From Shigella phage JK32, in sequence record MK962753.1: a stretch of 64,000 nucleotides of DNA. The stretch is one strand, 5' to 3'. Numbering within the stretch: the first letter of the stretch is position 1; the number at the start of each line of letters is the position of its first letter. Positions 13,701-17,326 of this stretch are shown one piece after another. A program made the translations under genes and the position numbers. The notes under the pieces are model-generated. The model worked only from the letters and a program-made list of their open reading frames with translations. It did not search any database and was not told the origin of the DNA.

Positions 13701-13882
13701 AGAACAGCGAATTGTTCCACGGACTTAAAGCAAGCGAACGAAGATTTGCAATGAGTCCACTGTTTGACCAGTCGGCGGTAACATTCTCTATGTTCCGTGA
13801 ACTTGTAGATAAACGGTTGAAGGATAATATAGGGAATCCACGCGATCCGAAGAATCCTACACAGAGGAAAATTAATGGCTAA
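10796..13882 (+). CDS. 7: baseplate wedge protein
   Basis: 1028 aa (T4 gp7 about 1032 aa); synteny. Confidence 0.75.
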   Translation: MIKAPSVTSLTIEKLSANQAYITWDDVGENFFYFVELAETRTRDGEIIPVDELSWVNLGYTADQNWFEDKNLFPEYYYKFRVAVAAEGFEQSKWIETEEFQTFKTNAYNFSMMREFNLANEFIKEKFTYDNREYVKFNTDLIQASLMKEDFVFSPEYANMTNISNYIVVDENFHEIQDHIEKVCTDINRTMLAEMNGVLYLFERFQPIVKVSNDKGQSWKAYKAFNDRVGNPVSRTCVYQSKTTTYVLGYDRIFYGRQASDTRWSADDVRFSDDTITFAKVGDENDLGFDVEVFGVFSRLTGDTTKYAEAMACSDDYLWVGAKDVIRRIRLKNTPVDTVQGSPTFGEKIFDPDVIRVTGNDKAVIQKMDVIDGKLLVFVTGEVKQRYQDPTKPENVVPSDDAGVYLIGSDGLSFQRVFGNTPQEREYIQHGFSNMSTNGDEVFISHYNHHFESILPDPETAEKYELGEAVKYSQEPTYLTDKKIHQTTFRASYDDLRIWELGPQAYYNEADYTWMRRNGVRVWITNDNRPLVVYPEVIYTQEVDTSGILDQNRVNREVYDKGTVTCYLNNVKFEGFKQYASGVMFHKNTGEIIGFYQFNYRVRDQVGVYWKPTNVAFVAELQNQVREVPWVPVHYDREQDPDLRPLLNKMTPDSFLLENENFRKFSEYYLQFLSDGSGTYYNKLKNLIKNKYPREQDAYEYLWSEMNKRNIYADKNKRDAVVRFFESRKSDFYSTKGVEASYKFLFKLLYNEDVEIEVESQAGLEYDIVVSSTNIDEDIVGRTIYTPTGRANVTYLEREYEGGRLRWRVTIHNLIGRFEEGQVIKSEKTAFEGMILVGVRGKELLSSSIDYINRSRSQYTMKIKSALPVSRYANDVMRFVHPVGFGFIGVTLLTMFINSGLSMKHTETIIQSLKNYKFDSGLPSVYPDRVADLDVDGNIKKDPLTGKALYLTSPLIGDEFPVPPEYDQENSELFHGLKASERRFAMSPLFDQSAVTFSMFRELVDKRLKDNIGNPRDPKNPTQRKING

Positions 13883-14870
13883 TGAAAATAGTGTGATCTA
13901 TCGCTCAATCATTACTAGTAAATTCAGAACGGAAAAACTTCTGAATTTCTATAATTCTGTAGGCGATGGGGCAAATCAAATTACAATTTATGGAACGTTT
14001 GGACGTTCGGAGCCGTGGTCAGAAAACGAAAAAGAGGTGGGCTTTGCCCCACCTTATCCGACCGATTCAACGGCTGGCGTTGTTGATATGTGGACCCATA
14101 TGATGGGGGCGGTTAAGATTAATAAATCACTTCTTGATGCGGTTATCCCCCGTAAAGATTGGGGTGATACCGGACAGGATAACCCGCGCACATTCTTTAT
14201 CAATGACATTGTTGTTGTAAACTCAGCACCATATAACAGAACTGATGTTGGTAGTGGTTGGATGGTGTATCGAGTGACAGATGTTCCCGATCGCGGTTAT
14301 TGTTCTATTTCAAGCATTGACGCTAAAGTAGAGTGTTTGAAATTGGGTGGAAAATGGACACCTACGCATGAATCAATCGCGCCACCAGTAGGGAAAGGCG
14401 ATTCTATTGATATGGGTGACGGATATCGTTGGGAATATTTGTACACAATTCCGCCTGATGCGGCGATCAACCGTTGCACCAACGAGCATATTGTTGTGCC
14501 GTTCCCTGATGAACTGCGACAAGATCCGGCGCGTTGGGGCTATGACAATGTGATCACCTGGTATAATGACTATAATCTGCTTTATCGGCTGAAAGTAGTA
14601 ACTTTGCGTTTTCAGGCTTATATGGATTCCGCACAATTCCCAACGTCAGCGTTAGTGGGTAATACTGGCTTCCGTCAGTTAAGCATTATCCTTAACCCAT
14701 TGGAAAAGAAAGCACGCCCTAGCGATCCAGACGTTAAAGCGGTTAAAGATAAGTACCGTCCGCAAGACTTAGAGCCGCACTCAGGCGAAATGATCTACAT
14801 GGAAAACCGACAACCTATCGTTCGGTCATTAGATCAAACAGAACTTGTTTCTGTATTGTTTGAGTTCTAA
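13875..14870 (+). CDS. 8: baseplate wedge protein
   Basis: 331 aa (T4 gp8 about 334 aa); synteny. Confidence 0.7.
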   Translation: MANENSVIYRSIITSKFRTEKLLNFYNSVGDGANQITIYGTFGRSEPWSENEKEVGFAPPYPTDSTAGVVDMWTHMMGAVKINKSLLDAVIPRKDWGDTGQDNPRTFFINDIVVVNSAPYNRTDVGSGWMVYRVTDVPDRGYCSISSIDAKVECLKLGGKWTPTHESIAPPVGKGDSIDMGDGYRWEYLYTIPPDAAINRCTNEHIVVPFPDELRQDPARWGYDNVITWYNDYNLLYRLKVVTLRFQAYMDSAQFPTSALVGNTGFRQLSIILNPLEKKARPSDPDVKAVKDKYRPQDLEPHSGEMIYMENRQPIVRSLDQTELVSVLFEF

Positions 14871-14881
14871 GTGTATGATTT

Positions 14882-14917
14882 AAAAGCCAATTCGAGAGAG
14901 TTGGCTTTTTCTATTTT
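14882..14917 (+). terminator. rho-independent terminator after gene 8
   Basis: AAAAGCCAA...TTGGCTTTT hairpin followed by TTTTTCTATTTTG. Confidence 0.6.
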
Positions 14918-14922
14918 GGGTG

Positions 14923-14950
14923 TTGACAATCTCATTTGGTAAGGTATAAT
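14923..14950 (+). promoter_or_regulatory. sigma70 consensus promoter (TTGACA-16-TATAAT)
   Basis: Perfect -35 and -10 hexamers with 16-nt spacer, about 30 nt upstream of the ORF at 14980. Confidence 0.6.
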
Positions 14951-14979
14951 ACACACATCTAAACAACGGAGGATAAATT

Positions 14980-15237
14980 ATGGCACGTCGTAAATTTACA
15001 GATAATTGTGAAGCAATTCAGGTATCCCCTTGCGGCTGGGATGTTATCGCAAACGGTGAGAAGATCGGGGAACTCATCGATCATACTCATTCATCACTAG
15101 CCGATTACACCGATGAACTATGGGAGGGTATTAATTGCGCTAACGTAACTAAACGATTCAAGACTATTGATGAGGCTATACATTTTGTGTATAATCCAAC
15201 TTTCGGTATGTGGAGTGATAGAAAATGGCACGCGTAA
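14980..15237 (+). CDS. hypothetical protein (cassette gene 1)
   Basis: 85-aa ORF with GGAGG RBS, directly downstream of the sigma70 promoter. Confidence 0.45.
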   Translation: MARRKFTDNCEAIQVSPCGWDVIANGEKIGELIDHTHSSLADYTDELWEGINCANVTKRFKTIDEAIHFVYNPTFGMWSDRKWHA

Positions 15238-15557
15238 ATATTAAACTGCATTACACAATGAATAAAGCTAAGTTTCCAATGCAAAAGCATTACTATGGTC
15301 TACGTGCACAAGATCCTAAACTCTATGGTACTCATTGGTTTTGTAAACATGATAACCAATGGCACACATACGAAGAAATGCACGAGATGATGAAACAGGG
15401 TATTGAATTTAGTTATTCTAATTATGACCATCGTATAACTTGCATTCGAAAATTGAAGCGATGGATTCGTAAGAATCCGCAATTTAAAAACTTTGTGTTC
15501 TTTATGTCTCATGTTTATTTGGGTCATAGCGTTACCGTAACAGCAAAGGTTAAATAA
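15225..15557 (+). CDS. hypothetical protein (cassette gene 2)
   Basis: 110-aa ORF, overlaps upstream and downstream genes by a few nt. Confidence 0.4.
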   Translation: MARVNIKLHYTMNKAKFPMQKHYYGLRAQDPKLYGTHWFCKHDNQWHTYEEMHEMMKQGIEFSYSNYDHRITCIRKLKRWIRKNPQFKNFVFFMSHVYLGHSVTVTAKVK

Positions 15558-16396
15558 TGGCACGACTTTCCAAACAAGAACAAAAATTACACGACCGGGC
15601 AATGGAGCTAATCAATTCAGATCGTCCATTGACATATGAAGAAAAAGATTTTTGCTATAATAACTATCAGGGAGATGGTCTAGGTGGTTCTGGTGCATTC
15701 TTTACCCCAGAAGGGCTTGCATGGGATTTTACCATTGATGCACATTGTACCGGAAAAGTATTAGACCTGTGTGCTGGGATCGGTCGTTTATCTTTCTGTA
15801 TGTTGCATCGTTGTAAGCCAGAAAAGATCGTATGTGTCGAACTCAATCCAGAATTTGCGCGGATCGGTAAACGACTATTGCCGGAAGCAGAATGGATCAC
15901 CAGCGATGTATTCGAATTTGAATCAAACGAAAAATTTGATGTTGTAATTAGCAATCCACCTTTCGGGAAAATCAATACTACCGACACAAAGGATGTATTT
16001 GAGTACACTGGCGGCGAATTTGAATTTAAGGTTATGACATTAGGCCAGAAGTTTGCCGATGTTGGTTATTTTATTGTTCCTTCCGGTTCCGCTGGTTTTT
16101 CCTATTCCGGTAGACCTTATTATGACGGGACCATGAAGTCTAATAAATATCTAAAATGGAGCAAACAAACTGGTTTGGTGACTTATGCCGGATGTGGGAT
16201 CGATACATCAATCTATCGCGATGAATGGCATAGTACCAACGTTTTAACAGAAGTGGTTGAGGTTCGGTATTACGAGAAAGAAGCCGTAGAATCTCCTAAA
16301 TCGCGTCCTAACGAACAAATAGAAGAAAGTAAGGAGATTACCTTACCAAAACAGGAAAGCGAGTCTGGGACGCTCTCAGATTTGTTTGACATTTAA
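15557..16396 (+). CDS. class I SAM-dependent amino-methyltransferase, probably N6-adenine DNA methyltransferase-like
   Basis: 279 aa; FFTP motif, SAM-binding VLDLCAGIGRL, and catalytic NPPF motif. Confidence 0.55.
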   Translation: MARLSKQEQKLHDRAMELINSDRPLTYEEKDFCYNNYQGDGLGGSGAFFTPEGLAWDFTIDAHCTGKVLDLCAGIGRLSFCMLHRCKPEKIVCVELNPEFARIGKRLLPEAEWITSDVFEFESNEKFDVVISNPPFGKINTTDTKDVFEYTGGEFEFKVMTLGQKFADVGYFIVPSGSAGFSYSGRPYYDGTMKSNKYLKWSKQTGLVTYAGCGIDTSIYRDEWHSTNVLTEVVEVRYYEKEAVESPKSRPNEQIEESKEITLPKQESESGTLSDLFDI

Positions 16397-16400
16397 TTAT

Positions 16401-16430
16401 AAGCCGTCCTTGTGGGCGGCTTTTTTGTAT
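16401..16430 (+). terminator. rho-independent terminator after methyltransferase gene
   Basis: AAGCCGTCCTTGTGGGCGGCTT hairpin followed by TTTTTTGT. Confidence 0.6.
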
Positions 16431-16436
16431 GTATTT

Positions 16437-16444
16437 TATAAATA
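16437..16444 (+). promoter_or_regulatory. T4-type late promoter TATAAATA
   Basis: Exact octamer about 28 nt upstream of gene 9. Confidence 0.55.
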
Positions 16445-16471: not shown

Positions 16472-17326
16472 ATGGCACAAGTTCCAAAGAAAAGAATAGA
16501 CACGGGTACTGTCGGCAATCCATCGACTGGCGATATCTTATATGATGGCGGTAATAAAATTAACGATAACTTTGATTCAATATATGACGCATTTGCTGAT
16601 CAGCGGTTTAAAGACGTAGACCACGGTGTAGGAAGAATGGTTATTCATGCAACCGGATACTATCAGAAGCATCCACGTCAAAGCTACGCTGGTTCCGCTG
16701 TTGAGATTGGGAGTCTACACGATATCGATACAACTCAAGGCGCACTTATTGCTATTCTACCTAAAGCAAAGGTTGGCGAGGGTGTTGTATTCATAAATAG
16801 TAACGGTAGCCTTTCAACGACGACACCGCTCAATATTCGAACTCAAGCAGGTGATTCTATTAGCGGGTATTCCGGTGATGCTACAATAACACAACCATTT
16901 TCAAAAGTCACTGTTTGGTGTACTGCCGTTGAAGGTAGTCGCGTAACATGGCGATTGGGTATCGAAAGTATGTTTACCGATACAACAACGCCATTAGATA
17001 AAACAGTTAACGTAACTGGAGTAGCAACAAACGTTGCTATTGCCGCAAAAACAGAATACGTTTCCATCAAATTATTAACTACCGCTAGCAATACATCCGG
17101 TTCAAAAATGCGTTCAAGTGAAACGCTACTGATGATTGATTCTAAAGCCGGAAAAGTTTATGCGACGGAATATGCAGTTTTGCAGAAGACAGAAGATGAA
17201 CTATACACGGTTCGTTATTTCATCGGTTCCGGCGATAAAGTATATGCAGAGTATAAGGCTACTGGCGAAAATATTCGTTTGGCAGTTAAAGCCGTAGACA
17301 CTATTAAAATCGGGGTTGCTACATGA
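16472..17326 (+). CDS. 9: baseplate wedge / long tail fiber socket protein
   Basis: 284 aa; N-terminus TGTVGNPSTGDILYDGGNKINDNFDSIYDAF closely resembles T4 gp9. Confidence 0.8.
   Translation: MAQVPKKRIDTGTVGNPSTGDILYDGGNKINDNFDSIYDAFADQRFKDVDHGVGRMVIHATGYYQKHPRQSYAGSAVEIGSLHDIDTTQGALIAILPKAKVGEGVVFINSNGSLSTTTPLNIRTQAGDSISGYSGDATITQPFSKVTVWCTAVEGSRVTWRLGIESMFTDTTTPLDKTVNVTGVATNVAIAAKTEYVSIKLLTTASNTSGSKMRSSETLLMIDSKAGKVYATEYAVLQKTEDELYTVRYFIGSGDKVYAEYKATGENIRLAVKAVDTIKIGVAT

Follow-up and report, generated by a model that had tools for sequence, protein, structure and literature searches.

The stretch of DNA analyzed here, hereafter the window, comprises 64,000 nt of Shigella phage JK32 (MK962753.1), and all coordinates are window positions unless another locus is named. 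The phage is a Krischvirus, i.e., an RB49/Phi1/JSE-like "pseudo-T-even" coliphage. Our subject is a small gene cassette between two of its baseplate genes and, above all, the methyltransferase encoded by the last gene of this cassette, which ends in a peptide closely resembling the C-terminus of gp43 and predicted to bind the gp45 sliding clamp. The left flank is gene 8, coding for a baseplate wedge subunit (13875..14870, + strand; Pfam Phage-Gp8, E 1.3e-143; phrog_977), and the right flank is gene 9, coding for the baseplate wedge/tail fibre connector (16472..17326, + strand; Pfam T4_gp9_10_N, E 1.4e-40; phrog_967). The first-pass annotation of this sequence described the two genes as adjacent in T4 and about 1.5 kb apart here, and the measured spacing is indeed 63 bp in T4 vs. 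1601 bp in the window. Read from gp8 to gp9, the interval starts with a terminator and a sigma70 promoter of perfect consensus, continues with three packed open reading frames (ORF1 to ORF3), and closes with another terminator followed by a late promoter; each of these elements was found where that annotation had placed it. The 2-kb region around the cassette matches 58 phage records with 93-97% identity, and all inspected records are from Krischvirus.

The methyltransferase is encoded by ORF3, an open reading frame of 279 aa (15557..16396, + strand). Its catalytic domain, delimited by motifs and by an AlphaFold2 (AF2) model, occupies residues 1-240 (15557..16276, + strand) and is formed by N-terminal helices and motifs X, I, and IV, without a target-recognition domain. 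Motif X, GAFFTP, is located at residues 46-51 (15692-15709, + strand; FFTP alone at 48-51), motif I, VLDLCAGIG, at residues 68-76 (15758-15784, + strand; LCAGIG alone at 71-76), and motif IV, NPPF, at residues 133-136 (15953-15964, + strand; with the following glycine, NPPFG, at 133-137). The order of motifs (X, I, IV), with (D/N)PP(Y/F) as the catalytic motif, is characteristic of the gamma class, and the family alignment shows little or no variation in GAFFTP, CAGIG, and NPxFG. At E <= 1e-3 the family comprises 1035 representative clusters; a threshold of E <= 1e-30 leaves 338 (clustered at 50% identity).

Profile searches of the 279-aa protein against methyltransferase families, proposed in the first-pass annotation as a check on its reading of the last ORF as an amino-methyltransferase with FFTP, VLDLCAGIG, and NPPF, agree with that reading, as do the motif order and the fold. 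The protein passes the cut-offs of the generic Pfam profile MTS (38.6 bits, cut-off 23) and of Eco57I (28.2, cut-off 25.3) but stays below that of N6_Mtase, and it matches the PADLOC model of the DNA methyltransferase Mad2 (E 1e-16) and nine models of Type II or orphan DNA methyltransferases, with every alignment spanning FFTP to NPPF. When the PDB was searched by sequence and by profile, the matches were weak (E ~1e-3), confined to the Rossmann core, and hence not diagnostic. In the AF2 model, whose predicted local distance difference test score (pLDDT) is 82, helices at the N-terminus and one Rossmann domain precede a disordered tail. In agreement with the same annotation, this single-domain model contains no target-recognition domain, and the neighboring ORFs are not conserved as a specificity subunit. 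No cognate restriction endonuclease was found beside the methyltransferase gene, whose neighbors are two ORFans without Pfam or PADLOC matches and the baseplate genes. The modeled fold is that of an N6-adenine-type amino-methyltransferase, a fold that by itself leaves the substrate undecided. Some family members are longer: P0125 (389 aa) carries a fused C-terminal portion of an N6_N4 DNA methylase, and P0131 (476 aa), although extended by approximately 230 residues, has kept a QLTLF end.

Behind the catalytic domain, residues 241-271 form a disordered acidic/polar linker (16277..16369, + strand; pLDDT <50 at residues 246-270), and the protein ends with the tail TLSDLFDI (16370..16396 with the stop codon, + strand), which we predict to be a gp45 clamp-binding motif by its likeness to the gp43 tail. 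The C-terminal peptide of the methyltransferase, QESESGTLSDLFDI, has its counterpart in the C-terminal peptide of gp43: the methyltransferase ends with ...ESGTLSDLFDI and Phi1 gp43 with ...KVASLTDLFDI. Six of the last eight residues match, and the remaining two are S/T swaps. Among 606 six-frame ORFs from ~164 kb of Krischvirus sequence, the pattern [ST]L..[LMFI]F is found near the C-terminus of only two, namely gp43 and the methyltransferase. Across 56 Krischvirus records, the final 60 residues of gp43 show an identity of at least 99%, and this segment can be aligned with the end of T4 gp43. The T4 protein ends with EKASLDFLFG, the epitope binding the gp45 sliding clamp; the C-terminal tails of T4 gp43, gp33, and gp55 all bind gp45, are interchangeable, and are carried on divergent flexible linkers, and a loop of T4 ligase has a similar motif, which binds gp45 (Kd ~10 uM) (PMC2988020, PMC6212786).

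In close relatives the linker varies (KQESES, EQETAS, or EDKSPS), each variant preceding the invariant tail, and the methyltransferases of distant relatives with the same gp8/gp9 junction end with TKTLDFVDFSEI and GSLSMFDI, resembling the T4-type motif. The Krischvirus gp43 end, SLTDLFDI, is the counterpart of the gp45-binding peptide of T4, and TLSDLFDI would mimic it. A recent DNA copy of the end of gene 43 into the methyltransferase gene was considered as the origin of the tail; synonymous codon differences 5' of the final 14 nt led us to reject it.

Two further tails were noted. The gene 30 ligase of Phi1 (L010, 9863-11359, outside the window) ends with ...TANTVKEVFDV, the third-best match to the shared tail of the methyltransferase and gp43 in the proteome scan; the Krischvirus ligase is devoid of the T4-type internal LDFLF loop, and its clamp-binding epitope may have been relocated to the C-terminus in this genus. 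In RB43, RB16, and KP27-like phages (L003, 3546-4280; L037-L053), the methyltransferase has a different conserved tail, [LTN]F[TD]F[RTV]IE-COOH, following a PEPEP-type linker, and no F.F.IE end was found in other ORFs of the RB43-like loci examined.

According to the family alignment, phage copies of the methyltransferase are extended by a low-complexity linker and end in a short conserved motif, whereas copies in enterobacterial islands have neither. Homologues that are 40-46% identical to the window protein, encoded in viral contigs of 30-70 kb and in bacterial genomes, have long Ala/Pro/Glu-rich linkers and end with QLSLFDAA, QLDLFGMAA, QLDIFEQIA, QADLFGVAA, EQLAFF, and similar sequences. 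QLxLF is the bacterial beta-clamp-binding motif (PMC4549789). We assembled 144 representatives with complete domains, of which 97 have a tail of at least 8 residues. The pattern Qxx[LIM]F occurs within the last 16 residues of 30 of these 97 tails, compared with 0.46 expected from shuffled tails (at most 4 in 2000 shuffles), an approximately 65-fold excess, and in 14 of the 30 motif-bearing tails it is located at the very end. At the loci L054-L090, the motif is present in 29 of 37 methyltransferases vs. 4 of ~1600 other ORFs. A tail of the QLxLF type was also seen in copies from the genomes of Caballeronia, Sphingomonas, Brucella, and Ochrobactrum, and a genome scan for hosts confirmed QLxLF-tailed forms at 10 or more loci. 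The neighbors of the methyltransferase at one of these homologous loci (L072) include a RuvC-like resolvase and a DnaB-like helicase. As far as can be judged from these sequences, tail type tracks the type of clamp that is available, and the tail is therefore hard to explain unless it binds a clamp. We found no literature on a methyltransferase as a client of a sliding clamp, either gp45 or beta, although our coverage of subscription journals was poor and earlier work may exist. Separately, the upstream neighbor of the methyltransferase at two loci (L072, 9098-9772; L071, 7891-8562) matches phrog_799, an unrelated family annotated as DNA methyltransferase, its product ending with RQGELFSGEAA and RQGEMFA, respectively, which are also of the beta-clamp type.

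The regulatory frame of the cassette begins with an intrinsic terminator identified by a terminator scan (14882..14917, + strand), which combines a 12-bp stem (14882-14909), a 4-nt loop, and a T-run; as RNA, the upstream 50 nt fold with -15.6 kcal/mol. It is the predicted end of late transcription from genes 6-8. The early sigma70-type promoter, TTGACA-N16-TATAAT (14923..14950, + strand), matches the consensus at 12 of 12 positions, and five perfect TTGACA-N15-18-TATAAT sites were found in the window vs. 0.15 expected. Direct reading of the sequence places the Shine-Dalgarno element of ORF1, GGAGGA, at 14968..14973 (+ strand). On the downstream side, a predicted intrinsic terminator (16401..16422, + strand; a 9-bp stem with 6 GC pairs, then a T-run) closes the early cassette transcript, and the late promoter TATAAATA for genes 9-10 follows at 16437..16444 (+ strand), as read from the sequence and from the same element in the same place in two relatives (L103 and L106). 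No sigma70 promoter was found at this downstream boundary. Both terminators have the same layout in these two relatives as in the window. Exact copies of TATAAATA are not enriched in the window by count (9 vs. 5.6 expected), and all nine are on the + strand, which is the strand of the late structural genes. The cassette thereby separates the late transcription unit of genes 6-8 from that of genes 9-12, at whose boundary it is located.

The upstream boundary corresponds to the "PeSL" units of RB49 or Phi1, approximately 50 per genome, each combining a sigma70-consensus promoter with a terminator stem-loop and mostly located 5' of ORFans (Arbiol et al., 2010, PMC2839356). The terminator at 14882 and the early promoter are the stem-loop half and the promoter half of such a unit, respectively; the stem-loop lies 13 nt upstream of the -35 box, an order also described for a published PeSL subclass (Arbiol et al., 2010, PMC2839356). 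The same composite unit appears at least twice more in the window, at 1742(-) and 45878(-), where it reads terminator / T-run / TTTTAG(G)TG / TTGACA / N16-17 / (T/C)ATAAT / CACA(C/T)ATC; by this composition, both are presumably further PeSLs. In RB49, exactly the interval from gene 8 to ORF140w holds the early promoter Pe:73830 predicted by Nolan et al. (2006), their sole prediction of this kind between 60.7 and 98.3 kb of that genome, and the RB49 early-promoter consensus agrees with transcript 5'-end mapping. The same study listed RB49ORF143w as a weak match to "Methyltransferase small domain." By its boundary elements, the cassette is a predicted early-transcribed unit of the PeSL type, and a long-established one. 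Since ORF143w was flagged in 2006, Pe:73830 was predicted, and the PeSL was published, the architecture of the cassette is not new; what is new here is the C-terminus of the methyltransferase.

The cassette is carried by all 58 matching phage records. Furthermore, metagenomic T4-like relatives (L103-L105), whose gp8 and gp9 are 88 and 77% identical to those of the window, respectively, encode the methyltransferase (63% identical) at the same gp8/gp9 junction and within the same regulatory frame. On this distribution, the methyltransferase appears to be the conserved core of an old cassette. The first-pass annotation had described a self-contained cassette with an early-type promoter, inserted between the baseplate genes. 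The first part of this description holds, given the PeSL-class boundary and the promoter predicted at the RB49 site; a recent or variable insertion is contradicted by the 58 records and by the identical junction in distant relatives. The same annotation had reckoned that a conserved core position combined with late timing would speak against its proposal: the core position is real, and no sign of late timing was seen.

The methyltransferase gene also occurs at other locations. In RB43, it is situated between genes 41 and 61. In the Citrobacter freundii chromosome (L004-L007, 8001-8717), a tail-less homologue of 238 aa borders an island that consists of small ORFs of unknown function, an HNH gene, and transposases; it adjoins yliH/bssR and is accompanied by a divergent gene of unknown function (170-242 aa). 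Krischvirus phages have three methyltransferases altogether, i.e., Dam (L009, 39544-40356), a small C5-cytosine-type enzyme with FPPC (L010, 3027-3743; Phi1 ORF189), and the cassette enzyme; cytosine has been reported to be unmodified in at least RB49 and TB34. Phi1 ORF189 was expected within the window, but its position is just past the right end, and it is an unrelated enzyme of the C5 type.

Two small ORFs precede the methyltransferase gene. ORF1 (85 aa; 14980..15237, + strand; phrog_16603) and ORF2 (110 aa; 15225..15557, + strand; phrog_12630) are ORFans, and both PHROG families are of unknown function. Neither has a Pfam, NCBIfam, or PADLOC match, homology searches with them returned near-identical phage proteins only, and the AF2 model of ORF2 is of low confidence (pLDDT 62). 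The three cassette ORFs overlap or abut, and each starts with MAR; according to the alignment, an MA[RK] start is a family trait of the methyltransferase, and we take its presence in ORF1 and ORF2 as a coincidence. In RB49 (L102, AY343333), an 11-bp deletion (window 15127-15137) frameshifts ORF1 into ORF140w and ORF141w; ORF1 is therefore probably dispensable, barring a sequencing error in this old record. The N-terminal two-thirds of ORF2 (window 15236-15416) are only 63-70% identical to RB49 at the nucleotide level, whereas the flanks exceed 90%, a pattern that indicates two ORF2 alleles in Krischvirus and recombinational mosaicism within the cassette.

Elsewhere, ORF1 and ORF2 are absent from L103-L105, a single unrelated ORF of 154 aa precedes the methyltransferase gene in L106, and unrelated small ORFs precede it in RB43-like phages. 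Conversely, Vequintavirus FV3 (rV5-like; L008, 2755-3575) contains the ORF1-ORF2 pair as the adjacent genes FV3_00023 and FV3_00024, with 60-70% amino acid identity, and Vequintavirus records are absent from the methyltransferase homologue matches. FV3 belongs to another subfamily, has no methyltransferase beside the pair, and its FV3_00023 is annotated with a longer N-terminus. The proposal that the small proteins are specificity or regulatory partners of the enzyme was rejected on these distributions, which differ between the ORFs and the methyltransferase in L103-L106, RB43, FV3, and RB49. Judging by their occurrence, ORF1 and ORF2 are probably variable ORFan cargo that shares the promoter and is unrelated to the enzyme.

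We consider it fairly probable that the cassette is expressed early and that its product, a SAM-dependent, gamma-class-like N6-adenine DNA methyltransferase without a target-recognition domain, then methylates phage DNA in a replication-coupled manner while tethered to gp45. Host sigma70 RNA polymerase would transcribe the cassette right after infection, with the two terminators insulating it from the late operons. In the product, the catalytic domain would be followed by a disordered linker of ~30 residues and by TLSDLFDI, a mimic of the gp45-binding tail of gp43, which would dock the enzyme on gp45 clamps encircling phage DNA during its replication. Adenines in nascent DNA could in this way be methylated processively, with clamp docking compensating for the missing DNA-recognition domain, and the likely benefit would be a shield against host restriction or other methylation-sensitive defenses for a genome whose cytosine is reportedly unmodified in some members of the genus.

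Several observations weigh against this scheme. The tail is missing from the Aeromonas T4-like, jumbo-phage, and enterobacterial island copies, which makes it an accessory rather than a required part of the enzyme. The RB43-like tail LFTFTIE has no close match among the tails of RB43's own gp43, gp33, and gp55; an exact co-variation of the methyltransferase and gp43 tails was sought in RB43, a second genus, and not found, only an xLF-type hydrophobic core being common to the two, and the co-variation is imperfect. Gene 43 itself lies outside the window, and its tail was read from Phi1 and relatives. The score against the Pfam profile N6_Mtase (16.3) falls below the cut-off of 20.4, which one homologue attains. 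The enzyme has no target-recognition domain through which to engage DNA. Finally, high-performance liquid chromatography/mass spectrometry of virion DNA of Krischvirus TB34, which carries the cassette, detected no modified nucleosides; as that study is silent on adenine, it counts only against bulk adenine hypermethylation.

One alternative is that the enzyme is a free-acting orphan DNA methyltransferase serving anti-restriction, its likeness to gp43 being incidental or reflecting a non-clamp function. Tail-less members are numerous (47 of the 144 representatives, in addition to the Aeromonas and jumbo-phage copies), so the catalytic domain works without a tail, and the mismatch between the RB43-like tail and RB43 gp43 points the same way. 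Nevertheless, we regard this alternative as unlikely, since it is at odds with the near-identity with gp43 over the last eight residues, found only in these two of 606 ORFs, the invariance of the tail behind a variable and disordered linker, and the independent presence of QLxLF in homologues from beta-clamp hosts, far above both the shuffled expectation and the base rate in other ORFs.

An equally doubtful alternative is that the protein methylates RNA (rRNA or tRNA adenine or guanine) or protein glutamine in the manner of HemK/PrmC and has an early function in host takeover or in modifying translation. Names given to the methyltransferase in GenBank range from hypothetical protein through putative methyltransferase and DNA methyltransferase to release-factor glutamine methyltransferase, and the RB49 record cites a similarity to rRNA guanine-N2 methyltransferase. 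Weak NCBIfam matches to PrmC, RsmC, and L3 glutamine methyltransferase exist, yet they are far below their cut-offs (37.5 bits vs. 199.1 for PrmC, TIGR03534, over residues 64-137 only; 29 vs. 295 for RsmC; the L3 match likewise), so that by the NCBIfam equivalog cut-off the protein is outside the HemK/PrmC release-factor glutamine methyltransferases despite the GenBank names, and the DNA methyltransferase profiles have the better E-values (1e-16). The top structural neighbors include METTL5 and PH1948, but with DNA enzymes the alignment covers a larger part of the fold and takes in FFTP and the N-terminal helices. The missing target-recognition domain and the unmodified TB34 virion DNA would fit an RNA or protein substrate. 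On the other hand, homologues are located in replication modules, and clamp-binding tails are sensible only on a DNA-bound enzyme, since tethering to a clamp implies an enzyme bound to DNA; from the clamp-type tail and this genomic context we infer that DNA is the better-supported substrate.

That the tail binds a clamp (gp45 or the host beta clamp) chiefly as a competitor or regulator of replication, late transcription, or host DNA synthesis, with methylation secondary, is very improbable: an added ligand would compete for T4 gp45 sites common to gp43, gp33, gp55, ligase, and the clamp loader, and early expression would place the protein ahead of late transcription, but a bare peptide or small protein would suffice for this role, and the invariance of GAFFTP, CAGIG, and NPxFG in hundreds of diverged members, both tailed and untailed, argues for selection on enzymatic activity.

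Extended from the window protein to its family, replication-coupled methylation by a clamp-tethered enzyme leads to a broader proposal, to which we give roughly even chances: a widespread family (338 clusters) of N6-adenine DNA methyltransferases, small enzymes of phages and prophages without target-recognition domains, would use the sliding clamp as a DNA-binding module. The tail would have been swapped repeatedly to fit the clamp, so that T4-type phages pair a gp43-like tail with gp45, and temperate phages pair QLxLF with host DnaN. The similarly tailed phrog_799 neighbor hints that the strategy may extend past one family. If the proposal is true, it would explain efficient genome modification by an enzyme without a DNA-recognition domain, add a new class of clients to the "tool-belts" of phage gp45 and the bacterial beta clamp, and provide a mechanism for replication-coupled protective methylation in phages without cytosine hypermodification. 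A C-terminal clamp motif would then be a simple sequence rule for spotting replisome-coupled enzymes among unannotated phage methyltransferases.

The cassette and its enzyme can be compared with several known systems. With respect to regulation, the PeSL cassettes of RB49/Phi1/JSE-type phages (PMC2839356, PMC4122927; Comeau et al., 2014) are found in the same genus and share with our cassette the promoter plus stem-loop, the ORFans downstream, and the repetition of units; a few PeSLs sit within virion modules, beside genes of unknown function (Arbiol et al., 2010, PMC2839356). Two differences were observed. The cassette is a fixed, not a variable, feature of the genus, and its upstream boundary alone is a PeSL, the downstream one being formed by a terminator and a late promoter. 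The cassette thus lacks the flanking pair of PeSLs from which mini-circle excision is proposed to proceed, and PeSL-to-PeSL excision of the whole cassette is therefore impossible. Arbiol et al. (2010, PMC2839356) mention neither the gp8/gp9 locus nor any methyltransferase, and the experiments in that paper concerned other PeSLs.

As an enzyme, the protein shares its motif order with gamma-class N6-adenine DNA methyltransferases (M.TaqI, HsdM, the Eco57I family, MmeI, and Mad2 of MADS), from which it differs in having no target-recognition domain or specificity subunit and in its sub-threshold N6_Mtase score. The small m6A RNA methyltransferases of the METTL5/PH1948 type align over ~170 residues only, with marginal sequence similarity (E ~1e-3); METTL5 requires the partner TRMT112, and an rRNA enzyme is ill-matched to the clamp-type tails and replication context seen here.

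As a clamp ligand, the protein shares with the T4 gp43, gp33, and gp55 tails and the T4 ligase loop the motif [ST]Lxx(L/F)(F), placed, as in the tails, at the extreme C-terminus after a divergent linker; the difference is in the carrier, as a methyltransferase is not named among the gp45 ligands in these studies (PMC2988020, PMC6212786). The prophage homologues resemble beta-clamp clients such as polymerases, Hda, MutS/L, and IS transposases, which use QL[SD]LF or QLxLxL (PMC4549789), and their motif is usually 0-5 residues from the C-terminus, after a disordered linker; the window protein, by contrast, has the T4-type and not the beta-type tail.

A conceptual parallel is eukaryotic. DNMT1 is coupled to PCNA through a PIP-box for replication-coupled maintenance methylation, and the shared concept is a short linear motif that recruits a DNA methyltransferase to the replication clamp. 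The two enzymes differ in class (C5-cytosine vs. N6-adenine-like) and in size, and their motifs and clamps are unrelated, so the analogy is one of mechanism only. Within these bounds, the phage enzyme would represent a viral, prokaryotic counterpart of DNMT1-PCNA coupling, in which nascent DNA would be methylated at the fork ahead of host nucleases.

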